Source: a virus (taxonomy: Duplodnaviria; Caudoviricetes). From it: a stretch of 64,000 nucleotides of DNA. The stretch is taken from the IMG/VR virus record IMGVR_UViG_3300021426_000005. One strand, given 5' to 3'. The position numbers and the translations under genes were made by a program. Shown piece by piece: positions 7,759 to 63,509 of this stretch (positions within the stretch are counted from its first letter, which is position 1; every line of letters begins with the position of its first letter). The notes below the pieces were generated by a model. The model was not told where the DNA came from, searched no databases, and saw only the letters and a program-made list of their open reading frames with translations.

Positions 7759-9235
7759 CTTCCGTTGGTTCTTCCGTTACGTCAATATCCCAGCCGGAAG
7801 CATCTGCACCCATTTGAGGGAATGCTTCAGTAAGAATCTCGGTAAGACCCTTACGGAATGTATCTGCATCAACAATTCCGGCATCTTTAAGGAGCTGTAC
7901 AAGGGTTGTAGCCTGATTGAGTGCAGAATCACGCTTCTCAAACTGAACTGTAGACTGAGTAGTTACTATCGGGTTCATATGAAGTGTGAACTTATCCACA
8001 TACCCACTCATATTCTTAGCTCTGAAATACTTATTCAAACCCTCAGTCCAGCCTTCGATATATGCTGTCATAAGTCTTTGCAAAATATTAGCATATAGTG
8101 CAGATCTCTGAGACATTACGGTACCAGCCGCACCAAGTCCCTCAGCAGAAGAGAAGTTCATTGCTTCTTTAGGTATACCTAATACTGACAGCTTTTTATT
8201 CTGATAATAGTCAAGCAGCTTGTTGTCTGCTTCTGTAGTATCCGACATATTGAGATCAGTTATGGATATAGCATCTGCACCATTCACCTTTGGAAGATAA
8301 ATCAAGTTATTAGGTGACTGAGGATTTAAGAAACTTTCTGCACCACCGGTAGAAGTATTCATGGACAATTGCTGTTCAATAGCATTCTTCATCTGAAGAA
8401 GTGTATCTGCAATTTCCTCTTCCTCTGCACCAGAACAATCGACATTGATGAATTTTACCACCCGGATCAAAGAAGATAAAAGCATACTATCTTCCAAAAG
8501 CCCCAGCGTTTGTGTGGGGACAACTACGTTACCCATAAGTGGCTCTGCAAACTGTATGTCATAAGTAATTGGGTCTCCGGTACGTTTGTCGGTACCCTCA
8601 ATCGTATATTCACCAAGCAGACCACCCAGCGAAAAATGAATAATTGCGGAATCAGGATATATATTATACTCACGCACATTGGCATCCGGCTGATAGATAT
8701 ACCCTACCGGATTACCCATTTCCCAGATATGAAGTACATCCTCTGGTGGTATCTTATAGGATGGAATAATATCATATTCCTTATCCGGAATGGTATTATT
8801 ATCCAAAGCAACGCCACGCTGTACAGTTTTACTTGCCGAATCCTTATACATATCTGTAGTCGGTATATACAGATTGCCTATAGTAGCAAGTTCTAAGATA
8901 TGGTCACGAACATATGAATTGATCTTCCACTTCTTGAACAGGGTATTTATGAGATCAGCAAGGTCAGGATCATCCGATGTAGCCCATATAATCTGACCTG
9001 CGGAATTAGCAGTTGTAGAATCCGTAGCATAATATGAAAGTGCGGTACTGATTTGAGAATCAGCAGCAACGTTACGCATTGTTTCTATCTTCGATTTAAT
9101 GTCCAGAAGAGCAGTATTTCCTCGCATATCAGACATACGGATGAATGAGCCAGAAGCTATAAATCTAAGATATGATGTATGATGCTTCGGCTTCTCCATC
9201 CAAGAGCGTAGCCGCTTGATCAATTTATTTTCCAA
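7736..9235 (-). CDS. portal protein (T4 gp20-like)
   Basis: 499 aa near TerL; IIHF, LLEDSMLL..R, LDYYQNKKLSVLGIPK resembles the gp20 DxxYFxxKLxxALxIP region. Confidence 0.85.
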   Translation of the reverse strand: MENKLIKRLRSWMEKPKHHTSYLRFIASGSFIRMSDMRGNTALLDIKSKIETMRNVAADSQISTALSYYATDSTTANSAGQIIWATSDDPDLADLINTLFKKWKINSYVRDHILELATIGNLYIPTTDMYKDSASKTVQRGVALDNNTIPDKEYDIIPSYKIPPEDVLHIWEMGNPVGYIYQPDANVREYNIYPDSAIIHFSLGGLLGEYTIEGTDKRTGDPITYDIQFAEPLMGNVVVPTQTLGLLEDSMLLSSLIRVVKFINVDCSGAEEEEIADTLLQMKNAIEQQLSMNTSTGGAESFLNPQSPNNLIYLPKVNGADAISITDLNMSDTTEADNKLLDYYQNKKLSVLGIPKEAMNFSSAEGLGAAGTVMSQRSALYANILQRLMTAYIEGWTEGLNKYFRAKNMSGYVDKFTLHMNPIVTTQSTVQFEKRDSALNQATTLVQLLKDAGIVDADTFRKGLTEILTEAFPQMGADASGWDIDVTEEPTEGGAPGGF

Positions 9236-10812: not shown

Positions 10813-12738
10813 TTATTTGAATTTATTATACATTAGAGAAAATGCACCGCCTAAGCTGCTTGGGCTTCCAGGGTTCATTTTCTTTGATAATCCATTTACA
10901 GCAGCAATAGCCGATACTTTTGCTTTGACCGGAACAGGAACACCAGGATTGAGTAAAATAGCATTCCAAACACTTCCTGCCACAGAATCACTCATATCCT
11001 TACTACCACCAACTTCATGATCACAGATACCTGTTCCTGGATCACGTTTTAGGTGAGTAAGTTCGGTTTCAAGCAATTCCACATGAAGTAGGTCTATACG
11101 TTGTTCAAGAATAGCGGATTTCAAAGCATCGTAGCCATCAGATGTGCGATCCAGTGATATTTTTGCAGTATTAAATCCCTGTGCTTCCAAAAGCTGTGCC
11201 ATATATTCGCTCTGAAATTGATCTCGGCTAACACATGAAATATTAAACTTGCAGACGTTTCTCAGCCAGCAGATGAATTGATTGATTTTCATATAGGATA
11301 TTTTGTCACCTCTCGGAGCTTGTACAGCAATTGAGAACACATGACTGAAAGTTGGGACTGAAATCACTTTTCCTTTAAGGTCAATGTCTTTTCGTCCAGA
11401 TATCACTATTCCAGAAATACCGGATCTATCAGTAGTAAGCGATAAGTCAAGATGAATAAACATCGGCATATGTATCAAGCGAGAATCCACACATTCAAGA
11501 TGAAAAAACTCTTCTATCGACAGCTTGTCCTGAGTACCAACTTCAATAATGTCTTTGTAAAATGGATTTTTACGTTCACCTATAGCCTGATCAAGTAAAT
11601 CCTGCGTAATGAAGCTGAAAGAACCTTGGACAGTAATTCCGGCTATATCCCTCAATGCAACATCAAAATCAGACAAAAACCTAGTTTTATTATCTTCTGG
11701 AACATCCAGCAGTCTATATCCAGAATTTCGTAATTCCTCAAGACCTTCGGGCGTATTCATTTCATCACTTACAACAAAACTGCGTAGATGTTTTCCACCT
11801 AAAGCAATCTTGAAGGTTTTACTAGAAGAATACTTAGACTTTGGCCATACTTCCCACTGAGGTTTATCAAACACATACATATGTTGATTCCCAGCTTCTC
11901 TTTGAGACCTAACATATTCTTCCATAAAGTCAGAATCTTCACGCTTAGAGCTGATGACATAGATTTTACCGAAAACTTCTCCATTCTTGACAAAAGTACC
12001 TGTAACACGGGCTACCAGTGTATCGTACTTCTCTTTCATGGTTTTCTTTGCTTTAAGTACGTCCTTAACGCCAGCGTTTCCAAAATTGACCTCATCGAAG
12101 ATAACACAGTATGTGGCTTTTCCTAACGCATGACTTGCAGCGGATCCATATACGATTTCTATTAGTCCACCCTCTGGGATGTATGCCGGATTGGTTTCAC
12201 TATCAGTAAAATGTCCATGGCGTGCAAACCACTTACTTGTCTGCAAGGTCGATATAAATTCCTTGTATGCGACACCCTTAGCAAGAGTTTCCGTAAGATT
12301 GAAAAAGAAAAATGAAATTCGTGTAACTTTCTTCAAACCAAAGTATTCTTGGGGATTTCGCAAACACATTATCCTATATAGCTGGTATGCACCATCTGAG
12401 ACCGCCGTACTGGTTTTTCCTGTTCTTGTAGCACCAGTAAAAACTATCTCATAATACTGATTTCCAGTTTGTTCTAGCTCCTTCATAACATCAAGCCACA
12501 CTGGATATATAGATCTACCACAGTCATTGGAAGCACCTAAGAATTCTTCAGAAGTCAGAAATGTTTCCTTATCAACCGGAATTTCCTTATAATCAGCAAG
12601 CCATACATCTTCATAGGTTTTGGAATAGCCGGTTTCCGCAAGCTCTTTTAGTATAGTTCTAAGAACTTTCTGTTCATCCGGGGTACAGGTAGAGTATATG
12701 GCTTTAATTCGCTCAGGAATAGAATTGATATCTGTCAT
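10813..12738 (-). CDS. terL: terminase large subunit
   Basis: Walker A GATRTGKT, Walker B VIFDE, RNase H-like HLDLS..D, DQFQS, DH..GSKDMSDSVAG. Confidence 0.92.
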   Translation of the reverse strand: MTDINSIPERIKAIYSTCTPDEQKVLRTILKELAETGYSKTYEDVWLADYKEIPVDKETFLTSEEFLGASNDCGRSIYPVWLDVMKELEQTGNQYYEIVFTGATRTGKTSTAVSDGAYQLYRIMCLRNPQEYFGLKKVTRISFFFFNLTETLAKGVAYKEFISTLQTSKWFARHGHFTDSETNPAYIPEGGLIEIVYGSAASHALGKATYCVIFDEVNFGNAGVKDVLKAKKTMKEKYDTLVARVTGTFVKNGEVFGKIYVISSKREDSDFMEEYVRSQREAGNQHMYVFDKPQWEVWPKSKYSSSKTFKIALGGKHLRSFVVSDEMNTPEGLEELRNSGYRLLDVPEDNKTRFLSDFDVALRDIAGITVQGSFSFITQDLLDQAIGERKNPFYKDIIEVGTQDKLSIEEFFHLECVDSRLIHMPMFIHLDLSLTTDRSGISGIVISGRKDIDLKGKVISVPTFSHVFSIAVQAPRGDKISYMKINQFICWLRNVCKFNISCVSRDQFQSEYMAQLLEAQGFNTAKISLDRTSDGYDALKSAILEQRIDLLHVELLETELTHLKRDPGTGICDHEVGGSKDMSDSVAGSVWNAILLNPGVPVPVKAKVSAIAAVNGLSKKMNPGSPSSLGGAFSLMYNKFK

Positions 12739-15038: not shown

Positions 15039-15440
15039 TTAGTGATCTTTCATGTATATGTATGGGCGCTCAGGTGTATTTGTCTGAACCTGATACCCAA
15101 AATATAAGCAGAAGTCATTATCCAGCTTTGAATTGCTAAATGTCAACTTGTACAGATGAAATCCAGCAGATGTATTTAGTATGCTTGTATCAACCTTATA
15201 CCAAATTCTATTGGTATCCTGAAATATGTAATCAGAATAATCTATAGCTTCCACATCCATAGTTACTTCTGAAAAGTCAGACAGTGTAAGTCCTACTGAT
15301 AGTCCGGCAGGCAGTTTCAGCCAGATAGCATCTTCAATCTCATTGAGGTTTAGCACCCGGATATTAGCTGTAGCATCACTATATGACACTAAATCAAAGT
15401 GGTTAGGGTAATTTTTATCAAACAAAATAATCACTTCCAT
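15039..15440 (-). CDS. hypothetical protein
   Basis: First gene after class II promoter word. Confidence 0.7.
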   Translation of the reverse strand: MEVIILFDKNYPNHFDLVSYSDATANIRVLNLNEIEDAIWLKLPAGLSVGLTLSDFSEVTMDVEAIDYSDYIFQDTNRIWYKVDTSILNTSAGFHLYKLTFSNSKLDNDFCLYFGYQVQTNTPERPYIYMKDH

Positions 15441-15453
15441 ACTACTTTAATAA

Positions 15454-15465
15454 TATAAAAGGTTA
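15454..15465 (-). promoter_or_regulatory. class II promoter word TAACCTTTTATA (packaging operon)
   Basis: Abuts terminator hairpin, heads the operon containing terL. Confidence 0.75.
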
Positions 15466-22484: not shown

Positions 22485-23217
22485 AGTTCCGGCACATATA
22501 ATCTGTAGCTGGCAGCCTTTCTGGAGCTATGCTCTTTTCAGCACAATCCTGAACATATTCCATATCCGACTTCACTTGTTGCATTTCCGGAAGGGATATG
22601 GTAGATTCATAACACTTCAGTCCACCGTATTGCCGATCTACATACAGGGTGAGTACCTTAGAGATATTCAGTATAGTGCTGTAAGTCCTTATCTGATCTT
22701 TATGATGTTGCTTTGTTTCCACAAGAGAATCCCAGCTACTATATTCAGAACTCTTGATTTCAAGCAAATAGTGATTTCCAGATAGCTTTAATATTCCATC
22801 ACAAGCAAACTTCATAGGTGGATTTTTGATACTCACCAAGGTTTCGTATCCCTTTTTAGATAGAGAATATTCATAGGGGATCGGATTTTCTTTTAAGTAG
22901 TCTTCTACAGATACCCAGTCAGCACCTAATGCTGTAGATAATGTTTCTTGCACAAGCTCATGAATAGCTGTGCCGATTTTTGCCGTGAAATCCAGCACAA
23001 GATCTGGATTAGATAGAAAATCCGGCTGTGTACCCCTCAACCGAAACCAGGATTTGCGCTTACATCGAATCGAAGAGGGGGCAAATGTGCAAGAACTTGG
23101 TCTTGCACATTCACTCTGAATTCTCTGCTGAGTAGCGGTTTCGTATATGGATATCAGCTTGTTGCTTGCATCGGAATTGAATTTTGCTAAATGGGCGAAA
23201 TCAATCTCACGAAACAT
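22453..23217 (-). CDS. Cas4-like PD-(D/E)xK exonuclease with Fe-S cysteines
   Basis: PSSIRC, GTAIHE, CDG..EIKS, Q..Y, CRNCEYRLKC. Confidence 0.85.
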   Translation of the reverse strand: MFREIDFAHLAKFNSDASNKLISIYETATQQRIQSECARPSSCTFAPSSIRCKRKSWFRLRGTQPDFLSNPDLVLDFTAKIGTAIHELVQETLSTALGADWVSVEDYLKENPIPYEYSLSKKGYETLVSIKNPPMKFACDGILKLSGNHYLLEIKSSEYSSWDSLVETKQHHKDQIRTYSTILNISKVLTLYVDRQYGGLKCYESTISLPEMQQVKSDMEYVQDCAEKSIAPERLPATDYMCRNCEYRLKCQEW

Positions 23218-24331
23218 CTACATCATCTACCTTGCTGCCAAGAACAGTTGTAAAGCTATCACCCACGATTGTGATACCTACAATCGCACCCTCAGAAACT
23301 GATGGGTATACGGTGATCTTGTTATCAGGAGACTTATTGATTACTGACTTAAAAATAGTCAGATCGAATGTCAGGCTGTAAGGTTCAGATACTTCACCTT
23401 CGGCAGCAATAGTAGAATCTACATTACTATCCTTGATCCGAAGTTCGTTAGTCTTAACTTCCACACCGATTTCAGGTTCAACTGCGGAAGTCAGTAGGGT
23501 AGCCTGATTCAATGCAGCGTTCAGCTCACCGATCTCAAGGGTTACACCATCAGCATCATTACCGGTCATTAGTCCGAGGATTACTTCGTGGGGATACGCA
23601 GATACAGTAGCTTCATCCGTTACGAATTCAAGCTGTGCGTAATAGTCATAGCTGTCAGCCTTTACTACTACGGTGTAAACATCACCTATCACGAACTTAG
23701 CGTCCGCAGGCATTGTAGCCATAAGGTTTACGATGAATGAAGACACAAGGCAATTCTTATCCAGCTGACCATTCTTGCTGGTATTAAACAGCGAATGCAC
23801 ATAATCTCCGGAAATAACATCAGAATCTTCGCCGAAGAAGAAATATGTATATACAGGAGATGGTTTAGTTACTTTGGAAAGAGCATAAGCCTGGTGATCC
23901 TTAACATACTTCCAACCGGCCACATCTACATTATCAGCTGATTCAATAGCTTCTGCGGAAGGAACTACCGGAGCAGCAAGTGACATACCATCCCAGTTAT
24001 CATCACGTTCTACAGAAAGAGTTGTCTTTCCAGCCTTGATTTTCAGACAATTCTCTTCAAAACAAAGAGTAACCTGAGCAGCACTGATTGAGTTGATAAG
24101 TGACTTAAAAAGATTGATATCAGCAAGGAAAGAAGCTGATTCATCAGTCCCTGTACCATGAAGCCTAACCTCGGCCTTGATGCCGGTAGACTGGGTATTC
24201 AGCTTCAGCATAGTCTTATCAGCTGTAAGCTCGATGATCATACTTCTGGGATTAGCATTTGTAATATTACCACCGATAACAGACATTGATACTGCCTGCT
24301 TCAATGGCTTCGTACTCAGTGTAAATTCCAT
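23207..24331 (-). CDS. dnaN: sliding clamp, beta-subunit-like (divergent)
   Basis: 374 aa, beta-clamp-like N-terminus and three-domain pattern; between polA and dnaX. Confidence 0.7.
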   Translation of the reverse strand: MEFTLSTKPLKQAVSMSVIGGNITNANPRSMIIELTADKTMLKLNTQSTGIKAEVRLHGTGTDESASFLADINLFKSLINSISAAQVTLCFEENCLKIKAGKTTLSVERDDNWDGMSLAAPVVPSAEAIESADNVDVAGWKYVKDHQAYALSKVTKPSPVYTYFFFGEDSDVISGDYVHSLFNTSKNGQLDKNCLVSSFIVNLMATMPADAKFVIGDVYTVVVKADSYDYYAQLEFVTDEATVSAYPHEVILGLMTGNDADGVTLEIGELNAALNQATLLTSAVEPEIGVEVKTNELRIKDSNVDSTIAAEGEVSEPYSLTFDLTIFKSVINKSPDNKITVYPSVSEGAIVGITIVGDSFTTVLGSKVDDVDVS

Positions 24332-24342
24332 AAAAACACTCC

Positions 24343-26919
24343 TTATTTTTGATTTGGTGCAAAACCTGTGTGTACTTTGGTTTTGATATGATAGAGAAAA
24401 TCACTTCTCGGTATACTATAACGATTACAGTAATCAGCAATATGCGATTTATAATCCTCTGTCACAATACCATTGACACCGAGGGCTTCATCACCTTCTG
24501 GCTTGCTACCGTCCGGATTCTTGAATACTGGAAGATCATATCCTACTTCAAATAGATGATACTGTATATACTTAACCTCATCAGGATCTTCTGTATCAAC
24601 ATTGTCGGTTTCCTTGTATGGACAAGGATATTCAAGTCCATACCAGCGGTATGAAGTAGTTACATCACACTTAATAGTGAATGGGAGAAAACTTGCAGCT
24701 TCGCACATTAGTTGTGAAAGTCGTTCCCCACCTTCTTTCCAGTGTTCGATTGGAACTTCACCTACAAGCTCATCATGTATTTGTAGAATAACCCTGCCAC
24801 CAAGTTCATTCCATATAGGGTCGTTTTCTACCTCTATCATAGCTAACTTTGTAAGATCAGCCGCTGATCCCTGCACACAGGAATTTACACATTGCCTAGA
24901 TGCTTCTGAAATCTTATGACTGTTATTGATAACCTTAATATGATAATTTTCTGCAAGTTCCTTTATGCGCTTCGCTTTCTGACCGAAATACTTATAGGAA
25001 GTAAGCTCTTTATAGAGCTTATCCTGTATTCGTTTAGGTATTCCGTCATTCCCAGTAAAAGTGGAAGGATCCAAAGGATCTATATCTGGATTTACATATC
25101 CAGGCATAGGCTGAAATTCAAACTCCGGAAGCATCATATCTGGGATATGTCTTCTACGACCAAGTATAGTTTCCACATAACCCTTATCATGTGCCATTTT
25201 CTGACTACTTATCATAAATCGCCGTAATGCGGGGAAAGCATTAAGAACCGAATCATATACGAACTGAGCTTGCTTTACTTTCTTTTCATCATCCCAATCT
25301 TCATGACTATATAGCTGATCTGCGATTGAAGGAATAGATCTACCATAAAGCACGCCCAATACGATTGATTTTGCTGAAGTTCGTCTGGCTTTTCCATCAG
25401 GGTTATATTCACCTGTCGGTGTAAACTCCTTACATTCTTCATAAGTCTTATTAAAGGCAATACTTGCTATAAAAGAATATATATCCTTATTTTCCTGGAA
25501 TGCCTTTATCATATCAGGATCTTGAGATATGAATGCGGTTAATTTTGGTTCCTGCTGACTGTAATCTGATGACAGCATAATATATCCAGGCGTGGCTCTA
25601 AACATATGACGAATATCGTTCGATTTGGATGGGATATTCTGCATATTTGGATCCGAAGAACTAAGACGACCGGTTCTTGCCCCTAGCTGCTTGAAGGTAC
25701 AATGTATTCTACTATCATCAGTAGTACCGTCAGGTAACTTATCGACAAAAGTACCAATCAATGTTACAAGACTTCTGCATTTCAGTATCTGTGCAATCAA
25801 AGGGTGATTATATGTACTGAGAACAGACTTGTCTGTGCTATTGGTCTTACCATTACCAAGTCTCAACCAGTCATAACAAAGCCATTTTACATGAGGTGTG
25901 CTGTTAGGGTTGAAATCTTTTGCGGTTTTGAATGGTCTTTTACTTGTTGAAAAATACTTTGGATCATTCAGAACGGCATCTAACAGCGAATACATCTTTT
26001 TATACTCAGCATCAAGGAGACCATGATACTTTGTACGAAGCATAGCGGCTACTGATTTTTCAAGATATATCCCTCGTCTGTGCATCAGCTGACATATCTT
26101 TGTCAGAGGAAATTCAACTCCCCATACAAGATCTGCTATTGCTTCAAAATGATGCTTCTGACACTTAGGATTATCTTTTTTGAGATATGGTAGCTGCCAC
26201 ATACACAATTCATAGGTATACTTGGCATCAGCTGCCGCATACAATTTAGCGACTTGTGGGTTACAGTATGGGAACAGATCTGCGGTGAAGAAATCGCTGA
26301 ACTTCATTCTATCCATCTGACCTTTAAGCGGATACTTAGTATAAAGACCTTTAAGAGAATTATCCTTTTCATCTTCTTTGATACAGCGCCATGCGATAAT
26401 AACGTCATACCAGAATACCGGTAACAGATCTACCTTTAGATCTTTGAATATCATAGCTAAGTCGAAGTCTGCATTTGCGAATATCAGCTTGATATTGCTA
26501 TCCGCTAATCTCTGCAATTCAACAGCTACTTGTTCGTAGGTAAGCTGATCCTTGTAAGGTTCATCAAATAAAGGTACGATATGCTTTATCGGGATATATA
26601 CTTCTACACCACCAGGATAGTATAAAGAAACGCCAACAATGGTATCCTTTATTTTATCCAGTCCAGTAGTCTCGGTATCAATTGCACCGATACCGGCTTT
26701 TAGCATCTTAGATATATAATCATGTAATGCATCCGGTGCAGTTATCAGTTCTGCCTTTGAATCTTTGAAGTGTTCAACTACCTTTGCAGAAATCTCATTG
26801 ATCTTAGCAGACAGATTCTTAGCATTGACCTTGGTTTTGGGTGGTGGCTCTTCTAGCTGCTTGCTCTTTTCAGCAGAGGCCATTATCTGAGCCATTTGGA
26901 CTTTGCTGAATAGCCCCAT
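24343..26919 (-). CDS. polA: family A DNA polymerase with 3'-5' exonuclease
   Basis: DTETTG, NADFD, TGRLSSSDPNMQNIP, motif A DYSQQEP, motif B RTSAKSIVLGVLYG, motif C QIHDEL. Confidence 0.96.
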   Translation of the reverse strand: MGLFSKVQMAQIMASAEKSKQLEEPPPKTKVNAKNLSAKINEISAKVVEHFKDSKAELITAPDALHDYISKMLKAGIGAIDTETTGLDKIKDTIVGVSLYYPGGVEVYIPIKHIVPLFDEPYKDQLTYEQVAVELQRLADSNIKLIFANADFDLAMIFKDLKVDLLPVFWYDVIIAWRCIKEDEKDNSLKGLYTKYPLKGQMDRMKFSDFFTADLFPYCNPQVAKLYAAADAKYTYELCMWQLPYLKKDNPKCQKHHFEAIADLVWGVEFPLTKICQLMHRRGIYLEKSVAAMLRTKYHGLLDAEYKKMYSLLDAVLNDPKYFSTSKRPFKTAKDFNPNSTPHVKWLCYDWLRLGNGKTNSTDKSVLSTYNHPLIAQILKCRSLVTLIGTFVDKLPDGTTDDSRIHCTFKQLGARTGRLSSSDPNMQNIPSKSNDIRHMFRATPGYIMLSSDYSQQEPKLTAFISQDPDMIKAFQENKDIYSFIASIAFNKTYEECKEFTPTGEYNPDGKARRTSAKSIVLGVLYGRSIPSIADQLYSHEDWDDEKKVKQAQFVYDSVLNAFPALRRFMISSQKMAHDKGYVETILGRRRHIPDMMLPEFEFQPMPGYVNPDIDPLDPSTFTGNDGIPKRIQDKLYKELTSYKYFGQKAKRIKELAENYHIKVINNSHKISEASRQCVNSCVQGSAADLTKLAMIEVENDPIWNELGGRVILQIHDELVGEVPIEHWKEGGERLSQLMCEAASFLPFTIKCDVTTSYRWYGLEYPCPYKETDNVDTEDPDEVKYIQYHLFEVGYDLPVFKNPDGSKPEGDEALGVNGIVTEDYKSHIADYCNRYSIPRSDFLYHIKTKVHTGFAPNQK
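24417..24426 (-). promoter_or_regulatory. class I promoter word inside polA 3' end, upstream of dnaN
   Basis: Exact AATCGTTATA about 85 bp before dnaN start. Confidence 0.65.
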
Positions 26920-27690: not shown

Positions 27691-27754
27691 AAAATCAACT
27701 CCTTATTTTGATATGATATATAAACAGCGCAAGGGATCGGCGCTATCCACCTAT

Positions 27755-27764
27755 AATAACGATT
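27755..27764 (-). promoter_or_regulatory. class I promoter word AATCGTTATT
   Basis: Upstream of ssb. Confidence 0.7.
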
Positions 27765-32956: not shown

Positions 32957-32966
32957 AATAACGATT
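32957..32966 (-). promoter_or_regulatory. class I promoter word AATCGTTATT
   Basis: Heads replication operon. Confidence 0.7.
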
Positions 32967-33256: not shown

Positions 33257-33874
33257 TCAGAGATTTTTCGCTAATTCATTTATCGCATTTTCTTTGTCGG
33301 GATACGGAAGTTCGGCAAGATATTTAATTATATCTCTGAATTTGGATGCCGGATCATTGAATAGTTTCTCACATTCTGACTTCAAAAATTCATACTCGAC
33401 CTGGTTAGGGTCTGATTCAGAAAGTATGTATTTCTGATACTCTGAGTTATAAATATCCCCGTGATGATATTTTTGGTCAGATCGGATGCCATCAGGGATC
33501 CACATTATTGTTTCCCACAGATATGGTGGAGTCAAATCCCGGTTGTAAAGACGCCGCCTACTGAATGACATCATCGTTTCGTACTCATATGTTTTCAGAA
33601 GTTTCGTCAGGTATGTCGGTCTAGATGCCTTAAATGTTCGTACTATAGATCCAATAAAGTGATCGCCATTGTTGTAATCAAGCTGCATATCCGATACTAT
33701 GTGTTTACCACTCTCAAGCTCAGATCTGTGTCCGTTTAGCCTGCGAATGATATCCTTTGACATTCCGACATAGACTTTATCATTGTTGAGATTTTGAATA
33801 ATGTAGATGCCGGATATCTGATATCTAAGACTTGGTATGATAAAGAATCCCATATAGAGATCAACTCCTTTCAT
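33257..33874 (-). CDS. GIY-YIG endonuclease domain protein
   Basis: SGIYIIQN..KVYVGMS..RR..H; likely start at MGFF. Confidence 0.85.
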   Translation of the reverse strand: MKGVDLYMGFFIIPSLRYQISGIYIIQNLNNDKVYVGMSKDIIRRLNGHRSELESGKHIVSDMQLDYNNGDHFIGSIVRTFKASRPTYLTKLLKTYEYETMMSFSRRRLYNRDLTPPYLWETIMWIPDGIRSDQKYHHGDIYNSEYQKYILSESDPNQVEYEFLKSECEKLFNDPASKFRDIIKYLAELPYPDKENAINELAKNL

Positions 33875-33878: not shown

Positions 33879-33888
33879 AGTAACGATT
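33879..33888 (-). promoter_or_regulatory. class I promoter word variant AATCGTTACT
   Basis: Between terminator and GIY-YIG RBS. Confidence 0.55.
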
Positions 33889-35281: not shown

Positions 35282-35482
35282 TTAATCATCAATATACTCC
35301 ATTATGTCACCAGGCTGGCAATTCAGGAGCTTACATAGACGATCAATAATTTCTGAATTGACTGATTCATTATGAATCAGTCGATCTACAGTATTAGCAT
35401 GAATTCCGTTCTTCCTAAGATAACTTTTATTGATGCCCTTTTCATCCATAAGAATGAATAACTTTCTAAATGAAATCGACAT
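35282..35482 (-). CDS. Cro/CI-type HTH repressor (HTH_26/YozG-like)
   Basis: ISFRKL..IDRLCKLLNCQPGDIMEY; RBS GGGAGGTG. Confidence 0.88.
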   Translation of the reverse strand: MSISFRKLFILMDEKGINKSYLRKNGIHANTVDRLIHNESVNSEIIDRLCKLLNCQPGDIMEYIDD

Positions 35483-35504
35483 AGAATCACCTCCCTTCAA
35501 CTCT

Positions 35505-35665
35505 ATTGTACCCGATTGCGTACAAAATGTCAATAGTTTCGATAAAATAATCTGTACGTCAAAATAGACAAATTTTGCCTTGCACTTTTGGGCGTTATGC
35601 CAATTGACAAGTTGTCTATTTTGACGTACAATATTATTAAGATAAGTTGTCTATCACAGTAGACA
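35505..35665. promoter_or_regulatory. genetic switch: divergent sigmaA promoters with four 18-bp TGT-N12-ACA operators
   Basis: TTGACA-17-TACAAT on minus (35533-35505) and plus (35604-35632); operators at 35507, 35553, 35613, 35648. Confidence 0.8.
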
Positions 35666-35685
35666 GCATAAAGGAGGCAATTATA

Positions 35686-36345
35686 ATGAATGAATTCACT
35701 AAGACTTACAGACTGTTCAAAGAAGCCGTAGACTACTATCCTGCCGATATTTCAACATATGAAGGGTGGAGAGAACTTCCGGTAAAGCTCAGAGCTGCTG
35801 GGTTGTTCATACAGTTCTTCGATCAAATAACCCTAGCTTATCAAAAGAATAAGGACAGCTACCCTTTTATAGAAGAAGAAACCGCAGTTTCAACAGTTAT
35901 CCAGTACATCATTAAGAATGTACCAATGATACTCTATCAGGCTAAAAGATACACTCCTGGCTATATGTATAAGGTCACATTCAATGCTATCTACCCACTT
36001 GGTAGGATCAAGCAAGACGTAGCTGCTTATCACAATAGAAGAAGCATCTTCGGTGACTTCATCGGGGAGCGTGGGAGCTACGAACAGACCATAGAAACTG
36101 ATGCAGAAAACAACTTCACTTATGCTGATTTCAACTTTGATTACATCACTACCGAATCTCTGGAAGATGAATTCGATAGACTTGCAGATGAAGCTGAGTT
36201 CTTCAAGATTCTGGAGCAGCTTAGTGATAAGGATCTGGAAATGGTTGAAAAGCTCATCAACAAAGTAAAGTTCACCCGGAATGAAAAGAATCTAGCTAAG
36301 ATCCAGAGAATCCGGGAACTTCTGGAAGCTACTTACAAATGCTGA
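35686..36345 (+). CDS. divergent sigma-factor-like protein 1
   Basis: Region-2-like segment (TAVSTVIQYIIKN..YMYKVTFN), region-4-like C-terminus; paralogue of next gene; RBS AAGGAGG. Confidence 0.55.
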   Translation: MNEFTKTYRLFKEAVDYYPADISTYEGWRELPVKLRAAGLFIQFFDQITLAYQKNKDSYPFIEEETAVSTVIQYIIKNVPMILYQAKRYTPGYMYKVTFNAIYPLGRIKQDVAAYHNRRSIFGDFIGERGSYEQTIETDAENNFTYADFNFDYITTESLEDEFDRLADEAEFFKILEQLSDKDLEMVEKLINKVKFTRNEKNLAKIQRIRELLEATYKC

Positions 36346-36352
36346 AATAACA

Positions 36353-36362
36353 AATCGTTAAA
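36353..36362 (+). promoter_or_regulatory. class I promoter word AATCGTTAAA
   Basis: Upstream of sigma-like 2. Confidence 0.6.
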
Positions 36363-36423
36363 GTAAGCATAGAAACATATCAAAACACATCAACAATTTA
36401 TTTTTTTTGAAAGAGGTATTATT

Positions 36424-37263
36424 ATGAAAGAGTTTAAGGACACATTTAATCTTTTCGGAGAAGCAATAGGATTAACATTCCCTATTGACTATACTACATG
36501 GATGTCAATCCCGAACAGACTCAAAGCGGCAGCCTTATTTGTCAACTTCTATGACCAGATCACACTTGCTTGGACAAAGGCTTGCAGTGAATTCACTGAT
36601 GAGGAGGACGGAGTTTCTACCGTAATGCAGTATTTGCTGAAGAATGTTCCTATTATAATGGACAATCCCAAGAAATTCACTCCGGCATATATCTACAGAG
36701 TAGCATACAACTGCATGGGCTGTCTCAGAAGGGTTCAGAGGGAACAGGATAGATTCGCATACACTGTGTCACAGTTTACTGTTGTCAATGATGACGTACT
36801 GGATCTGTTTGATACGATCATCGGTTCAGACTGCTTTACCGCATCTGAACTTGAAAAACTTAGAATGGAAATGAGGAATATCATATTGAACATGGATAAG
36901 GATACTATTAAAGTAGTTGAGCATCTTCTGGATGGGAAGAAACTTACAAAGAAAGCGGCAGCTAAAGAGCCTGAGATCATGGCTGATCTTCGTAAGACAT
37001 TTGCGAAATACAGATCCACTCTGATTCCAGAGGATAACAGATTTGCTACATTCAAGGATGTGCTGGACTGTGAAGACATCATCGATTCAGCTACCGTAGA
37101 AATGCGTGATGGCGTCAAGGCCGTATACTGCGGCGAAAAAAGAATTTCACCTATCACCGGCAAGACCGAAGTTGTATTCTTCGGACCAGATAGAGATTAT
37201 GTACTTCCGGTAGGCATTGCTGGTGAGCTGGTAGTAACAGAAGTAGAAATGATTGGAGAGTGA
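36424..37263 (+). CDS. divergent sigma-factor-like protein 2 with extra C-terminal domain
   Basis: Clear paralogue (LKAAALFVNFYDQITLA vs LRAAGLFIQFFDQITLA); FTPAYIYRVAYN ECF-like region 2. Confidence 0.55.
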   Translation: MKEFKDTFNLFGEAIGLTFPIDYTTWMSIPNRLKAAALFVNFYDQITLAWTKACSEFTDEEDGVSTVMQYLLKNVPIIMDNPKKFTPAYIYRVAYNCMGCLRRVQREQDRFAYTVSQFTVVNDDVLDLFDTIIGSDCFTASELEKLRMEMRNIILNMDKDTIKVVEHLLDGKKLTKKAAAKEPEIMADLRKTFAKYRSTLIPEDNRFATFKDVLDCEDIIDSATVEMRDGVKAVYCGEKRISPITGKTEVVFFGPDRDYVLPVGIAGELVVTEVEMIGE

Positions 37264-37269
37264 TAGTAG

Positions 37270-37581
37270 ATGATCGAAATTATTACTGGTGGAAGAACTG
37301 TAGGCAAAACGGAGTGTCTTCTTAGGCACTCCGCAGCCCAAAATATACCTATCCTATGTACCAATGCTGAACGTGAAGCGCATCTGCTGGAAATGGCCGA
37401 CAAATTAGGGATACAGATCCCTAAGCCCATAACTTTAGCTCTATACAGTAAGCATCATGGATTCTTTGGAAGCAGTAAGGTTTTCATGGATCAAGTTGAT
37501 AAGATCATGGAAACCATGTTCAACGCCGTTATAATCAAAGGCGTTACTATATCAGACTACCCAGCTGACAGTCAGGAGTAA
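37270..37581 (+). CDS. small P-loop protein
   Basis: GGRTVGKT at N-terminus; KLGIQIPKPIT. Confidence 0.7.
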   Translation: MIEIITGGRTVGKTECLLRHSAAQNIPILCTNAEREAHLLEMADKLGIQIPKPITLALYSKHHGFFGSSKVFMDQVDKIMETMFNAVIIKGVTISDYPADSQE

Positions 37582-37585
37582 ACCT

Positions 37586-37927
37586 ATGATGAACAAAACT
37601 AAAATCAATATCCTAGGTACACCCTATCAAATTCTATTCAAGCAACCGGAAGAAGATACCATGCTGACTGATTTATACGGCTACACAGACCCCATTACTA
37701 AGGTAATCTGTATCGATGCTAAAGATTACATGAACATCATTGACAATGAACTTCACCGCAAAGAAGTTCTACGCCATGAAATTATTCATGCCTTTCTTGC
37801 GGAAAGCGGTCTGGACAACAATGCACATAAGTCTGATCATTGGGCTATTGATGAAGAAATAGTTGACTGGCTTGCTATTCAAGGACCTAAAATCTACAAA
37901 GTATGGACGGAACTAAATATTCTATAA
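37586..37927 (+). CDS. small HExxH zinc metallopeptidase-like protein
   Basis: VLRHEIIHAFL..EE. Confidence 0.75.
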   Translation: MMNKTKINILGTPYQILFKQPEEDTMLTDLYGYTDPITKVICIDAKDYMNIIDNELHRKEVLRHEIIHAFLAESGLDNNAHKSDHWAIDEEIVDWLAIQGPKIYKVWTELNIL

Positions 37928-37931
37928 CAAA

Positions 37932-37997
37932 AGCTCCCACAAATTGTGGGAGCTAACCTTTTATATAAGTAGTTTTCATTTTTAGAGAATCGTTATA
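37932..37997 (+). promoter_or_regulatory. hairpin followed by tandem class II (37954-37965) and class I (37988-37997) promoter words
   Basis: AGCTCCCACA/TGTGGGAGCT stem, TAACCTTTTATA, AATCGTTATA. Confidence 0.75.
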
Positions 37998-38031
37998 GTA
38001 TTTGTAGATTATACGCACCGGGGTGAATATC

Positions 38032-38763
38032 ATGGGAAAATACAGCGCCGAATACATAAAGACAAAAACCAATGAATTGTACGATTCATTACCTATGGAT
38101 TATGATAGTAGGATAAAGTGTTTCGATGTTAGGGATGAAATTCTTGATCTCAACTACACATTCTTTGGATATGTGGCATCTTCGACTTTTGTTGAAGGCG
38201 TGGAGTATGAAGATAAATTCCAGACAGCTATCATGTCATTTCTTGGTATGTGGTGGAAATACAAGTGGACACCTAAATATCGTGCTGACTTATCCTTTGC
38301 CGTATTCTTCAAGCCACGAATATCAGAAGAGATCAAACGATATCTTTCTGTAGTGAGCTATACTCAGCGAAGAACTGCTTGTTCTAAGGCAGCGAAGCAA
38401 CTTGGGAAACATTGGACGAAAATCACATACGAAGATCTTTCTAAGGTAGTATTACCAGCAGATGACATGATCGCTCTTAAAGCTGTTCTTGGGGCTAATA
38501 TTCCGGCTGACATATCTGAGCTGGATACCTTCCTTGAATCAAAAGAACCAGTTCAGGGAATTGAAAAGTACCAAACCACAAAGTATGATTCAATTGAGGA
38601 ACTTTTGATTCAAGAAATGATAGAAAGAGAATCGAAGTTGTCCGATAAGGATTTGAAGGATATAGCTGATATGTATTGTTTACCTCAAGACACGGTTACT
38701 TCAGCTTATCCTAAATCCTTGGACATTCTATATAAAAGGTTATCTGATAATCTTGATATATGA
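38032..38763 (+). CDS. RNA polymerase sigma factor (SigF/SigB/FliA-like)
   Basis: RDEILDLN..VAS..GVEYEDKFQTA..SFAVFFKPRISEEIKRYL region 2; HTH-like region 4. Confidence 0.8.
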   Translation: MGKYSAEYIKTKTNELYDSLPMDYDSRIKCFDVRDEILDLNYTFFGYVASSTFVEGVEYEDKFQTAIMSFLGMWWKYKWTPKYRADLSFAVFFKPRISEEIKRYLSVVSYTQRRTACSKAAKQLGKHWTKITYEDLSKVVLPADDMIALKAVLGANIPADISELDTFLESKEPVQGIEKYQTTKYDSIEELLIQEMIERESKLSDKDLKDIADMYCLPQDTVTSAYPKSLDILYKRLSDNLDI

Positions 38764-47543: not shown

Positions 47544-47816
47544 TCACGCTCCGTTCTTTTCTATTAGATATGTGTCTTCTAAGTCAGTATATTGTAGCGG
47601 TTTGATTTCCTGTGTAAGCTGGTTGACCAAATACCAGCCACAGACCGTGCGATTTCCTCCCCAGCCATACCAACCGTATGCTACAGTCCAGACCACATTA
47701 CTAAATCTACCTATGCGAATGCTATCACCTGGACTTAGTGTAATATCGTAATCTGGTACAGATAACGTCATGGTTTCGCTCAAAGCAGACACCTCCCAAA
47801 GATTATATTGAATCAT
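47544..47816 (-). CDS. hypothetical protein
   Basis: First gene after class II word; true start probably near 47783 after GGAGGTG. Confidence 0.65.
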   Translation of the reverse strand: MIQYNLWEVSALSETMTLSVPDYDITLSPGDSIRIGRFSNVVWTVAYGWYGWGGNRTVCGWYLVNQLTQEIKPLQYTDLEDTYLIEKNGA

Positions 47817-47819
47817 TAT

Positions 47820-47831
47820 TATATAAGGTTA
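47820..47831 (-). promoter_or_regulatory. class II promoter word TAACCTTATATA (fibre operon)
   Basis: Just downstream of terminator, heads fibre block. Confidence 0.75.
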
Positions 47832-47840
47832 TGTATGGAT

Positions 47841-47880
47841 AAAAATAAGCCGTAGGGGTTATACTCTCCTACGGCTTTTT
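47841..47880 (-). terminator. terminator
   Basis: AAGCCGTAGG/CCTACGGCTT stem flanked by A and T tracts. Confidence 0.8.
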
Positions 47881-56486: not shown

Positions 56487-56539
56487 TATAACGATTTGTG
56501 ATTTTCCCTATTGACAAACTAATCACGGTATTGTATAAT
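56487..56539. promoter_or_regulatory. back-to-back promoters: class I (minus, 56487-56496) and consensus sigmaA (plus, 56511-56539)
   Basis: AATCGTTATA and TTGACA-17-TATAAT, both exact. Confidence 0.85.
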
Positions 56540-56559: not shown

Positions 56560-58311
56560 ATGGATATTTATAATATCGCTAATGAACTGAAACTTTCTCA
56601 TAAGACCATTCATGATATTCCGCTTAGAGTAACATTCTATGCTAGGGTTTCTACTACAAGAGAAGAACAAGAAGGCTCTATAGAGCATCAGATCAGCTTC
56701 TTTACTGAAATGATCCAGAATAATCATAATTGGACGTTTATTCCGGGTTATGTGGATAGGATCAGAGGGGAATCCGCATCTAACCGTGAAAACTTCATGC
56801 GTATGATTGAAGATGGGAAGAATGATAAATTCGATTTAATCCTGACGAAAGAGGTTTCCAGATTTGCAAGAAACACAATTGACAGCTTAACTTATACTAG
56901 AGAGCTATTACGCTGCGGTGTAGGTGTATTCTTCCAGAATGACGGAATTTGCACCATTGATACTGATAGTGAACTGAGACTAACTATCATGTCAAGTATA
57001 GCAGCTGATGAAGTCAGAAAGCTCTCAGAGCGTGTACATTGGGGACAGAAACGTTCAATTGAGAACGGTAGGGTCATGGGTAACAACCGTATGTATGGCT
57101 ATCACAAGTCCGACTGCAAATTAGTCATAGATGAAGCTGAAGCTGAAATGGTCAGACTGATATACCAACTATATGCTACCGGAGATTATAGCACCCGGAA
57201 AATAGAAAAAATCCTCTACGAAAGAGGATTTAGAAGCCGGAGCGGTACTAAAATTTTTCATGGGGTAATATCTGGAATAATTCAGAATCCTAAATACAAA
57301 GGATATTACTGTGGAAATAAGGTCCGAATAGTAGACTACAGAACAAAACAGCAGAAGTTTCTTCCGGAAGAGGACTGGATCATATACAAAGACGAAACCG
57401 GTGAAGTTGTTCCAGCTATAGTTTCAGAAGAACTCTGGGATAAGGCGAATGCAGTCTTCCAGGAAAGAAGTCAGGCTATTAAGGTAAGAGGGAGATCTTT
57501 CAAAGATAAAAGTCCATTGACCGGAAAGATCTGGTGCGGAGCTGACGGAAGTGCCTATTGGAGAACGAGCTATTCCAACAGCATCAAGATGGGAAGCCCA
57601 ATTTACCAATGGGTATGTAGTTCAAAGAAAAAGGACGGTGCAGCTTCTTGTAAATCATTTGCTTTAATGGAATGGGAAGTATACTACATCTTATCAAATA
57701 CATTCAAATCACTAGTAGATGATATAGATACTTATGTATCAGAATTTCTTGAACTCCTAAAAGCTACAGATCCTACCAAAGATGTACAGAAAGATATACT
57801 AGCACTAACAGCAAAAATTGATCAATGTAAAACAAAGAAAGATAAACTATTAGAAATATATATGGACGATGCTATATCTAAAGCTGAGTTCAAAGCTAAA
57901 AATGATGATTTCAATAGAAAGATTGAAGAATATGAAGGCGAAATCAATGACCTCAAGGAATTGAAATCCGACACAGCTATGACAAGCCGTAAGCTCCATG
58001 AGATTGAAAAGTCTATCAAGGGCATATATCAATCAGATGATGAAGTAATTCCGAAAGCTCAGTTGGACGACCTGATAAAGACTGTACTGGATAAAATAGA
58101 AGTTTATCCTGATACTGAGGATTCAATGATTCTTAAAATCTTCCTAAAAACTGGGTCAGAAACATCAGTAACTCATTCAAAAGACTTGCGTTGTTCTGGA
58201 CACATCAAACATATGATTAAGCCACAACAACAATACATATTCAAAAGAAATTCTATAAAAAGACAGCATCATGAATTCCAAATCAGATATGATGCTGAAA
58301 TATACATATAA
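56560..58311 (+). CDS. large serine recombinase (integrase)
   Basis: YARVST catalytic Ser, SRFARN, recombinase domain (NPKYKG), Zn-ribbon-like region and coiled coil. Confidence 0.95.
   Translation: MDIYNIANELKLSHKTIHDIPLRVTFYARVSTTREEQEGSIEHQISFFTEMIQNNHNWTFIPGYVDRIRGESASNRENFMRMIEDGKNDKFDLILTKEVSRFARNTIDSLTYTRELLRCGVGVFFQNDGICTIDTDSELRLTIMSSIAADEVRKLSERVHWGQKRSIENGRVMGNNRMYGYHKSDCKLVIDEAEAEMVRLIYQLYATGDYSTRKIEKILYERGFRSRSGTKIFHGVISGIIQNPKYKGYYCGNKVRIVDYRTKQQKFLPEEDWIIYKDETGEVVPAIVSEELWDKANAVFQERSQAIKVRGRSFKDKSPLTGKIWCGADGSAYWRTSYSNSIKMGSPIYQWVCSSKKKDGAASCKSFALMEWEVYYILSNTFKSLVDDIDTYVSEFLELLKATDPTKDVQKDILALTAKIDQCKTKKDKLLEIYMDDAISKAEFKAKNDDFNRKIEEYEGEINDLKELKSDTAMTSRKLHEIEKSIKGIYQSDDEVIPKAQLDDLIKTVLDKIEVYPDTEDSMILKIFLKTGSETSVTHSKDLRCSGHIKHMIKPQQQYIFKRNSIKRQHHEFQIRYDAEIYI
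58190..58231. repeat. imperfect inverted repeat, candidate attP inside integrase ORF
   Basis: GTTGTTCTGG-acac-ATCA-aaCAta-TGAT-taag-CCACAACAAC, symmetric about CA at 58210-58211. Confidence 0.55.
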
Positions 58312-60092: not shown

Positions 60093-60128
60093 TATGTATT
60101 ATCCTCCATTATAAATAGTATATATAGA

Positions 60129-60169
60129 TATATAAGGTCTGTTGTCTTTATACACTATCTATAACGATT
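60129..60169 (-). promoter_or_regulatory. tandem class I (60160-60169) and class II-like (60129-60140) words upstream of dcm
   Basis: AATCGTTATA and AGACCTTATATA. Confidence 0.7.
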
Positions 60170-61237: not shown

Positions 61238-61265
61238 ATTATATCGGTTTTATTCAATATGTCAA
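61238..61265 (-). promoter_or_regulatory. sigmaA-type promoter TTGACA-16-TATAAT
   Basis: Direct match upstream of zeta-like gene. Confidence 0.65.
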
Positions 61266-62943: not shown

Positions 62944-63097
62944 GACAACGATTTGTGGTTTTCACTATCCTAATTATATCATACCGTACATATATTTTCA
63001 ATTAGTAAGTTGCACAAAGTTACAATATCGTAATTGTGTATATAGTACATATTGACAATTACGGCATTATATGTTAAAATAAGATAGCATCGTTATA
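62944..63097. promoter_or_regulatory. divergent dual-promoter region: sigmaA plus class I word on each strand
   Basis: Minus: TTGAAA-17-TATAAT (63001-62973) and AATCGTTGTC (62953-62944). Plus: TTGACA-17-TAAAAT (63052-63080) and CATCGTTATA (63088-63097). Confidence 0.7.
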
Positions 63098-63122: not shown

Positions 63123-63509
63123 ATGATCAAAGATCTCATATGCCAACGTTGCGGAGCTACATACCAGGGCGATCCCAGAAGCCGGTATTGCTCTTACTGC
63201 AAAGGACATCGACCTCCGTCAGTTCATATTGGAGATACAAAGGTATGCCCGAACTGTGGCAAATCATTTGAACTCACAAAGAACGGACAAAAATATTGTC
63301 CTGATTGCGGACCGTTAATAGCTAAGAAGAAGAAAATTGCAGCAAACTATCGGTACGGAAAGAAGACTTATGCACGAATGGAACTTCGTGTTCTGAAGAA
63401 TGACAAACAACGTATTGTAGACCATGCGACTAATATGGGCGAATCTGTTAATCAGTTTGTGCTAAGAGCTGTAGAGAATCAGATCAAAACCGATAAAGGA
63501 TCAGAATAA
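63123..63509 (+). CDS. double zinc-ribbon protein with C-terminal ribbon-helix-helix
   Basis: Four CxxC pairs; YARMELRV..GESVNQFVLRAVE RHH-like end. Confidence 0.75.
   Translation: MIKDLICQRCGATYQGDPRSRYCSYCKGHRPPSVHIGDTKVCPNCGKSFELTKNGQKYCPDCGPLIAKKKKIAANYRYGKKTYARMELRVLKNDKQRIVDHATNMGESVNQFVLRAVENQIKTDKGSE

Follow-up and report, generated by a model that had tools for sequence, protein, structure and literature searches.

A putative repressor-gated cascade of sigma-like proteins and two promoter classes in a large phage

Organization of the locus

The 64-kb window that we analyzed, IMG/VR record IMGVR_UViG_3300021426_000005, is almost wholly phage DNA and is coded mostly on the minus strand. 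Its single sizeable plus-strand island (35647-38763) carries three sigma-like genes, which lie next to a divergently transcribed gene for a small helix-turn-helix (HTH) protein. We propose that these four genes, together with two short promoter words (class I and class II), form a transcription cascade gated by a repressor. The genes and signals of the locus are listed below. Sizes are given in amino acids (aa) or nucleotides (nt), ECF stands for extracytoplasmic function, and numbers with an L denote related loci.

35282-35482, minus strand: gene for a Cro/C1-type HTH repressor of 66 aa (Pfam HTH_26, E 1.9e-15)
35533-35505, minus strand: leftward sigmaA-type promoter of the HTH gene (TTGACA-17-TACAAT, 11/12 to consensus)
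35507-35524, no strand: putative operator O1, TGTACCCGATTGCGTACA, covering the spacer and the -10 edge of the leftward promoter
35553-35570, no strand: putative operator O2, TGTACGTCAAAATAGACA, an inverted repeat with O3
35604-35632, plus strand: rightward sigmaA-type promoter of sigma-like gene 1 (TTGACA-17-TACAAT, 11/12 to consensus)
35613-35630, no strand: putative operator O3, TGTCTATTTTGACGTACA, covering the spacer and the -10 edge of the rightward promoter
35648-35665, no strand: putative operator O4, TGTCTATCACAGTAGACA, in the transcribed leader of sigma-like gene 1
35686-36345, plus strand: paralogue 1 (sigma-like gene 1), an ECF-like two-domain protein of 219 aa (predicted AlphaFold2 fold, matches to sigma2 and sigma4)
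36353-36361, plus strand: class I word AATCGTTAA ahead of paralogue 2, at the same position in L004, L006 and L007
36424-37263, plus strand: paralogue 2, an ECF-like, sigma-like protein of 279 aa, 45% identical to paralogue 1
37270-37581, plus strand: gene of the same operon, 103 aa (phrog_1828, E 8e-13)
37586-37927, plus strand: gene of the same operon for a small metalloprotease-like HExxH (HEIIH) protein of 113 aa (phrog_1233, E 1.4e-21; weak SprT-like match)
37932-37954, no strand: bidirectional terminator-like hairpin at the end of the rightward operon
37955-37966, plus strand: class II word AACCTTTTATAT ahead of the late sigma gene, kept in L001 and L005-L008
37988-37996, plus strand: class I word AATCGTTAT, also ahead of the late sigma gene and 34 nt past the class II word
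38032-38763, plus strand: late sigma gene, a divergent group-3-like protein (sigma2-sigma3-sigma4) of 243 aa (predicted fold, weak TIGR02937 match)
38730-38741, minus strand: exact class II word, a possible antisense promoter inside the 3' end of the late sigma gene

A preliminary description of this DNA had placed the HTH repressor and the first sigma-like gene divergently, at sigmaA-type promoters overlapped by operators, the second sigma-like gene behind a class I word, and a third, SigF/SigB-like gene behind words of both classes. This layout is borne out by the two 11/12 promoters with their four operators, the class I word at 36353, and the class II and class I words at 37955 and 37988.

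A search of annotated phage genomes found no relative of the window and only a match of 143 nt. Relatives were fetched by way of the late-sigma family, which gave 54 IMG/VR loci on contigs of ~4.5-250 kb and, in addition, a 68-kb contig of a Clostridium sp. metagenome-assembled genome (MAG); the Clostridium sp. MAG relative is L004. Members of the close clade have a late sigma 62-68% identical to that of the window, and G005 is a complete, distant relative of 165 kb with one copy of the ECF-like gene. The phage is probably a large, myovirus-like and temperate phage of gut Clostridia; temperate, because the window encodes a serine integrase and a close relative is classed as a provirus by IMG/VR.

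The HTH open reading frame (ORF) spans 35282-35533, and its true start is the ATG at 35482, which has a GGGAGG ribosome-binding site ahead of it. The nearest NCBIfam model to its product is VanU (6.7e-8). Both promoters lie inside the gap of 203 bp between the HTH gene and sigma-like gene 1. SigmaA sites of this strength (consensus TTGACA-17-TATAAT) occur nine times in the 64 kb, and those that are intergenic and correctly oriented precede the HTH gene, paralogue 1, the integrase gene, a zeta-toxin-like gene, a membrane protein gene and two accessory genes. The operators share the 18-bp form TGTMY-N8-RKACA (TGT-N12-ACA). Four are clustered here and two occur elsewhere in the window, against an expected number of 1.6; O2 and O3 form a 22-nt inverted repeat that is 95% complementary. 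Homologues of the HTH_26 gene are divergent from the paralogues in L004, L006, L007 and L008. Among the close relatives, one to three HTH_26 genes face the same sigma-like genes and the sets of inverted repeats differ, as would be expected for immunity regions. We infer that the HTH protein represses transcription through O1-O4.

Only two sigmaA promoters in the window are perfect (12/12). They belong to the serine integrase gene (56511-56539) and to the zeta-toxin-like P-loop gene (61238-61265; Pfam Zeta_toxin, E 6e-10), and neither has a TGT-N12-ACA operator. In L004 a 22-nt repeat, GCTGA(C/G)CTATCGGCAATACGGG (4485-4510 and 4940-4965), flanks a small ORF upstream of paralogue 1.

Predicted structure of the two paralogues

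Paralogues 1 and 2 share their 45% identity across the N-terminal 118 aa (E 2e-30). An exhaustive HMMER search closed at E 0.001 with a family of 232 clusters at 50% identity. A phmmer search with the paralogues gave nothing significant, and one of 60 family members reached Sigma70_r2 (E 0.0086).

The AlphaFold2 model of paralogue 1, computed from an alignment of 60 sequences, has a mean predicted local distance difference test (pLDDT) score of 86.5. It consists of a helical N-domain (residues 3-116), a disordered linker (~120-157) and a three-helix C-domain (159-217). We compared the model with 48,161 representative chains using VIA-align, in an exhaustive search that does not depend on Foldseek; about 35 of the top 50 chains were sigma factors. 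The C-terminal part (~residues 153-219) matched sigma4 domains with Z 5.5-7.2 and a root-mean-square deviation (rmsd) of 1.7-2.5 Å over 52-66 aa. The best of these was SigH (3mzy; Z 7.2, 2.5 Å over 60 aa, 27% identity). Others were SigL (3hug, Z 6.6), sigmaE region 4 (2h27, Z 5.9 over 57 aa) and SigC (2o8x, 1.7 Å over 52 aa). Residues ~20-118 matched sigma2 domains with Z 5.3-5.7 over 82-91 aa; scores were 5.7 for 5wuq, 5.7 for 4cxf and 5.6 for 5h6x. The sigma2 domains of SigW, CnrH, RpoS region 2, SigC, BldN and sigma70 (1sig) together span Z 4.9-5.7. Because two independent domains match two sigma domains in the correct order, the fold is judged to be sigma-like. A shape search of the ESM Atlas gave template modelling (TM) scores of 0.41 or less and was uninformative, and a BFVD search returned one family member (E 8.5e-10) and otherwise weak matches to phage sigma factors.

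The interaction with RNA polymerase was also predicted. Residues 1-125 of paralogue 1 and residues 1-400 of beta' from B. subtilis gave an interface score (ipSAE) of 0.78; the best control gave 0.00. In calibration the mark applied to this score was attained by 58 of 80 solved complexes and by two of 110 mismatched pairs. At least 85% of the contacts agreed between runs, and the pLDDT of the partners was at least 83. The predicted interface on beta' comprises residues 247-291, which in our numbering we take to be the clamp-helix coiled coil, the canonical sigma2 site. The N-domain is thus predicted to sit on the beta' clamp helices, which supports sigma likeness; the pass may draw partly on the model's memory of solved sigma-beta' complexes, and the beta' used is a stand-in from another host. 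Together, the predicted fold with its modest Z scores describes the paralogues as sigma-like proteins of the ECF type, with the order sigma2-linker-sigma4. Pfam and PHROG scans recognised no anti-sigma factor among the neighbouring genes.

Paralogue 2 and its orthologues (279-319 aa) have an additional C-terminal domain of ~80 aa (residues ~200-279) that is not present in paralogue 1. A feature search of the Atlas with this extension gave no usable match, and no fold or family was assigned to it. A homologue of the HExxH gene adjoins the ECF-like sigma gene in L058. One may speculate that the HExxH protein is an ImmA-like protease, which removes the small repressor once the operon fires.

Predicted structure of the late sigma factor

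The ORF of the late sigma gene opens at GTG 38023. Its start is probably ATG 38032, which matches a 96%-identical homologue of 243 aa (P0001). The family contains at least 425 clusters at 90% identity. The late sigma itself has no Pfam sigma match, and none of the 120 homologues listed has a Pfam domain. TIGR02937 of NCBIfam matched it with E 1.5e-5 over residues 37-239 (model positions 3-164 of 165). Further NCBIfam matches, to SigF (E 0.0098), SigF/G and SigB/F/G, are weak and all fall under the curated cut-offs, and the phmmer match was Geobacillus SigF (E 0.27).

The AlphaFold2 model of the late sigma has a pLDDT of 79; a helical segment (113-156) is followed by a disordered one (157-190) and by a second helical segment (191-244). 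All of the top 50 Foldseek matches in the PDB were sigma factors aligned over the full length, and the alignments with SigB, sigmaS, sigma32 and sigmaA chains cover residues 1-246. With VIA-align the sigma2 domain matched sigma70 domain 2 (7xya_F; Z 10.2, 2.9 Å over 96 aa) and a fragment of RpoS regions 1.2-2 (5h6x_B; Z 9.8, 2.6 Å, 96 of 96 residues), and sigma2 plus sigma3 matched 7n4e_F with Z 10.1 over 135 aa. On this evidence we accept the protein as a divergent sigma factor of the group-3 type. The profile of the late-sigma family, searched against the PDB, met only chance matches to Sar1, which were discarded.

The last 34 nt of the late sigma ORF contain the exact class II 12-mer in antisense, just past the terminator of convergent minus-strand genes. 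A transcript from this word (38730-38741) would run antisense through the late sigma gene to the hairpin at 37932-37954 and could act as negative feedback on the late sigma. L007 and L008 have, in its place, a gene driven by class II that is convergent with the sigma gene.

Two putative promoter words and the genes behind them

The class I word, (A)ATCGTTAT(A), is a single, -10-like block, and its CGTT core resembles the -10 elements of ECF sigma factors. The exact 8-mer AATCGTTA occurs nine times in the window (expected 2.15), a number reached in none of 100 shuffles. The 7-mer ATCGTTA has nine of its ten copies in the ~5% of the window that is intergenic, all aimed at the next gene. When one mismatch is allowed, AATCGTTAT is not above chance (28 copies vs 24), and the enrichment resides in the exact core only. 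Besides the two copies in the sigma island, class I words are found at these positions:

32959-32966, minus strand: head of the helicase/primase replication operon
27757-27764, minus strand: ahead of the genes for the single-stranded DNA-binding protein (SSB) and DNA polymerase
33881-33888, minus strand: ahead of the GIY-YIG endonuclease gene
24419-24426, minus strand: ahead of gene 23207-24331
1271-1278, minus strand: ahead of the small gene 1047-1244
56489-56496, minus strand: back to back with the integrase promoter, for an operon next to the integrase
60162-60169, minus strand: ahead of a DNA methyltransferase gene, in tandem with a class II word
63089-63095, plus strand: core ATCGTTA ahead of the zinc-ribbon gene 63123-63509

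With up to one mismatch allowed, the class II word AACCTTWTATAT occurs nine times (expected 1.54); none of 100 shuffles gave this. By our count seven sites are convincing. Those outside the sigma island are:

4239-4250, minus strand: ahead of the tail sheath operon
9261-9272, minus strand: AACCTTGTATAT, ahead of the portal gene
15453-15464, minus strand: ahead of gene 15039-15440
47819-47830, minus strand: AACCTTATATAA, ahead of gene 47544-47816 at the head of a putative tail-fibre block
60128-60139, minus strand: GACCTTATATAT, ahead of a methyltransferase gene

The two words thus stand before different kinds of genes: class I precedes the genes for helicase, primase, SSB and polymerase, and class II those for sheath and portal. 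Among all oriented upstream 8-mers of the window plus eight close relatives, these two are the most enriched (~17-fold), and the same scan revealed no third promoter word.

The words have the architecture of a -10 element. Ribosome-binding sites start 10-16 nt past either word, which leaves room for a -10-type element only, with a transcription start a few bases downstream. No conserved -35 element was found upstream of 146 class I or 28 class II non-redundant sites, and most words have no sigmaA hexamers nearby.

Both words are kept in relatives. In 19 of 25 non-redundant distant loci AATCGTTAT is the top word; 41 of its 89 copies in the distant relatives fall within 3.5% of the sequence. G005 has it 22 times on one strand and not once on the other. 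Class I precedes paralogue 2, the orthologues of paralogue 2 and the single-copy gene of G005, which fits autoregulation if the assignment of sigma factors to words proposed below is right. Class II precedes the late sigma gene in all six members of the close clade. The tandem of class II and then class I at this gene recurs in three of five close relatives (L001, L005 and L006), with a spacing of 35 nt in L001 vs 34 nt in the window. Of 21 sites of the class II core in the distant relatives, 20 lie upstream of an ORF and point towards it. The variant ATCTTNTATA of class II is not enriched in the complete distant genome.

Several further observations concern the words and their surroundings. 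Class II words next to hairpins would make compact terminator-promoter modules at operon boundaries. L009 is devoid of AATCGTTA and has ACTCGTTATA upstream of genes (~940, 5940 and 15560), a natural variant of class I. The GIY-YIG gene (33257-33874), which is homing-endonuclease-like and has its own class I word, is located between the replication operon and the switch region. In many relatives the leader of ECF-like sigma genes, from promoter to ribosome-binding site, contains a further word, (A)CATATCAA(A/G)A, as one to three tandem copies. It was seen in L004, L015, L029, L038, L052 and L058, and in the window it follows three class I words (36376-36400, 27708-27715 and 24383-24390). Window-wide CATATCAA is not enriched (nine copies vs 5.8 expected). 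It may be an element of leader RNA or of translational control.

The remaining landmarks of the window are the following; it also encodes a UvsX-like recombinase, SSB, primase, a DnaB-like helicase and several methyltransferases.

1732-4002: tail sheath gene
7736-9235: portal gene
10813-12738: large terminase gene
24343-26919: family A DNA polymerase gene
56560-58311, plus strand: serine integrase gene

Phylogeny of the ECF-like genes

In the close relatives the paralogues again form a tandem pair, in most cases immediately ahead of the late sigma gene. The distant relatives have a single ECF-like gene, nearly always behind a consensus TTGAC(A/T)-17-TATAAT promoter, which marks it as an early gene. 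In the phylogenetic tree the paralogue 1 copies form a strongly supported clade (100/99) with a long branch, confined to genomes that bear the HTH gene; those of paralogue 2 fall together with the genes that distant phages have in single copy. The tree indicates an ancestral system of one ECF-like and one group-3-like sigma factor. It suggests that paralogue 2 is the ancestral copy and a middle sigma that amplifies itself, and that paralogue 1 is a derived copy serving as trigger. A duplication of the ECF-like gene appears to have taken place in the temperate clade, with the new copy placed under a repressor-controlled sigmaA promoter and the old one now behind a class I word. Since paralogue 1 is derived and restricted to the HTH-bearing clade, it has the look of a starter sigma gated by the repressor. 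Dozens of related uncultured phages contain the two words and the two sigma families as well.

Discussion

The results are consistent with a repressor-gated cascade in which the paralogues serve class I and the late sigma serves class II. We give this model as a whole a probability of roughly 0.6. In the repressed state the HTH protein would occupy the four operators and keep both its own promoter and the divergent promoter of paralogue 1 off. Upon derepression host RNA polymerase with sigmaA would make paralogue 1, which would bind the beta' clamp helices. Paralogue 1 would then start transcription at class I words, and so switch on paralogue 2 and the late sigma gene along with the replication and accessory genes. 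Paralogue 2, reading its own promoter, would sustain class I transcription and close a first self-amplifying loop. The late sigma would read class II words ahead of the genes for sheath, portal and other virion proteins as well as ahead of its own gene, and so close a second one. Repression by the HTH protein, the assignment of sigma factors to words, the temporal order and autoregulation are the parts of this model that we infer from sequence. The assignment is chosen because replication genes should precede virion genes, because each sigma gene then carries its own word, and because of the likeness, noted above, of the CGTT core to ECF -10 elements.

The preliminary description had also called the third gene SigF/SigB-like, had named the fold of the two paralogues as the point to be checked, and had split the words into a replication/accessory class and a structural one. 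The predicted fold and the weak TIGR02937 match agree with the first. On the second, the model of paralogue 1 (pLDDT 86.5), a VIA-align list dominated by sigma factors and the predicted beta' contact speak for a sigma fold. The split into two classes holds, and both words are kept in relatives.

A number of points weigh against the cascade, and we collect them here. The HTH protein is a single small protein with neither a sensor nor a peptidase domain. Neither paralogue matched any Pfam, PHROG or NCBIfam model, TIGR02937 included; a profile of 60 family members found no match in the PDB or Pfam, and hhalign gave a probability of 0.1% for a relationship between the paralogue and late-sigma families. 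Per-domain Z scores of 5-7 can be attained by chance for helical proteins, and in a Foldseek search of the PDB with the paralogue model sigma factors were frequent near the top, at E values of 0.7 or worse. The TIGR02937 match of the late sigma scored 24.7 bits vs a curated cut-off of 42.9. The 146 class I sites lack a conserved -35 element, and ECF sigma factors normally require one, their bipartite promoters consisting of a -35 (AAC) and a -10 (CGT) element. The sigma-like proteins number three, the words two. G005, the complete distant genome, has few copies of the class II core (three sites), so that the pairing of late sigma and class II is not general. Finally, a GC-rich terminator hairpin lies immediately next to three of the seven class II words (15441-15464, 37932-37966 and 47830-47870), so the CCTTTTAT part of the word may double as a terminator U-tract.

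The mismatch between three proteins and two words also favors a cascade that is wired differently. Paralogue 1 could read class I and paralogue 2 class II, with the SigF-like protein having some other target, for instance host genes or a promoter class that escaped detection; or the SigF-like protein could read class I and the ECF-like proteins class II. Class II is abundant mainly in the clade with duplicated paralogues and rare in the complete single-copy genome G005. The loci were all fetched by way of the SigF-like family, and most of them show an enrichment of class I. Furthermore, sporulation-like phage sigma factors can be dispensable for lytic growth (PMC9429907). However, paralogue 2 is orthologous to the single-copy gene of the distant relatives, in which class I dominates, and in the close clade class II never precedes paralogue 2 and always precedes the SigF-like gene. 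An ECF-like reader of class II would fire virion genes before replication genes, and the ECF likeness of the class I core points the same way. We regard such a rewired scheme as unlikely, if less so than the two explanations that follow.

According to the second explanation, the sigma-like proteins are activators of the RinA/ArpU/Ltr type or sigma appropriators that work with the sigmaA holoenzyme, or the words are sites of another DNA-binding protein, for example the HExxH/SprT-like product. This would account for the paralogues having no sequence-level membership in sigma-70 families and for relatives in which class I lies inside or beside sigmaA-like promoters (in the spacer in L016/L017; also L037 and L015). 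But the words are too near the ribosome-binding sites to be upstream activator sites, most have no sigmaA hexamers, and the N-domain of the paralogues is predicted to take the place of sigma2 on the beta' clamp helices. As for the SprT-like protein, it occurs in three fetched loci only, and a single-sequence search did not find it in five related records, including the complete genome with 22 class I words. This second explanation thus seems improbable to us.

It is very improbable that the words are promoters of a phage-encoded RNA polymerase outside the window with the sigma-like genes being incidental: both words are single-block and -35-less like the promoters of such enzymes, the window is only part of the phage genome and a YonO-like enzyme may be too divergent for these models, but a search for the beta'-type domain PF00623, positive in 14 of 14 control genomes, found none in five related records, one of them a 100% complete genome of 165 kb (a T7-type search with PF00940 was blank, and is uninformative because it was silent in all its controls too).

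The looser claim that phage sigma factors drive two private promoter classes in this phage is highly probable in our view. A much wider claim is offered tentatively, with more doubt than belief: that two unrecognised sigma families, one ECF-like (232 clusters at 50% identity) and one group-3-like (at least 425 at 90%), are widespread in large uncultured phages of gut Clostridia and both guide host RNA polymerase to single-block, -35-less promoters, and that in one clade a duplicated, repressor-gated starter ignites two successive self-amplifying loops that commit the phage to lysis. If this is true, an ECF-like sigma factor that dispenses with a -35 element would represent a new way of working for this type of protein. 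If the cascade model holds, two large families of 'hypothetical' proteins would be named, each with a candidate promoter word. Temporal gene classes would become readable from sequence in widespread, large, uncultured gut phages, and orthogonal sigma/promoter pairs would be at hand for Clostridia. The locus would also be a compact case of a lytic-phage sigma cascade put under lysogenic control by duplication of a sigma gene. With one repressor, four operators, three sigma factors and two words, the proposed circuit is compact and specified in full, and few experiments would suffice to test it.

Comparison with known systems

The Ltr superfamily (RinA, ArpU and LtrC) comprises small, sigma4-related activators of packaging and lysis genes in temperate phages of Gram-positive bacteria (Firmicutes) (PMC3152322). 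They serve a single late promoter upstream of terS, whereas the words described here occur at tens of sites in two classes, and the paralogues have a full sigma2-like domain with a predicted contact to the beta' clamp helices.

The late system of T4, in which gp55 acts with gp33 on the promoter TATAAATA, resembles the present one in its divergent, minimal sigma-family protein and its single -10-type block without a -35 element. T4 gp55 (7d7d_F) is among the structural matches of paralogue 1 (Z 4.8). The T4 system differs in that it needs gp33 and the sliding clamp; the proteins described here retain a sigma4-like domain.

The middle and late promoters of SPO1 are bipartite, with -35 and -10 elements. 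In this phage host sigmaA reads early promoters, one of them yielding a phage sigma factor, and a second phage sigma takes over the late genes (PMC13401047, PMC9429907). The logic of sigmaA, then gp28 (middle), then gp33/gp34 (late) is similar at the sequence level to an early sigmaA promoter followed by distinct promoter classes. However, SPO1 is strictly lytic and has no repressor gate, and two of the three sigma-like genes described here are paralogous. The three proteins had no match among the PHROG families, and hence none with the phage sigma factors of that library, which we take to include gp28 and gp34. Multiple sigma genes occur elsewhere, as in SP10, which carries three, and temperate phages with sigma genes are known (PMC9429907).

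The PBSX prophage of B. subtilis shares with our locus an HTH repressor gene divergent from a group IV-like sigma operon, with several operators (putative in our case) between them. McDonnell and McConnell reportedly found in 1994 that its repressor Xre binds four sites beside the xre gene. The backward-transcribed Xre gene, whose product silences the element, precedes a cassette that encodes the group IV (sigma2, sigma4) sigma factor Xpf (Pcf, a positive control factor), the activator of the late cassette with its virion and lysis genes (PMC8347963, PMC10141391); in view of this precedent, the preliminary description overstated its case in calling the architecture unusual. The two systems differ in several respects. 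Searches with Pfam, PHROG and NCBIfam detected no homology of the paralogues to Xpf-type sigma factors, and no homology emerged between Xre and the HTH_26/VanU-like repressor of 66 aa. PBSX is a defective prophage, whereas the phage described here is large and replication-competent. The present locus has three sigma-like genes, two private promoter classes and a tier for replication; a sigma gene is the first of the derepressed operon, and the promoters are single-block and -35-less.

New with respect to these systems would be two sigma families that current models do not detect, with promoter classes that are both single-block and -35-less. Equally new would be a duplicated starter sigma as the first product of the switch, followed by two nested self-amplifying loops.

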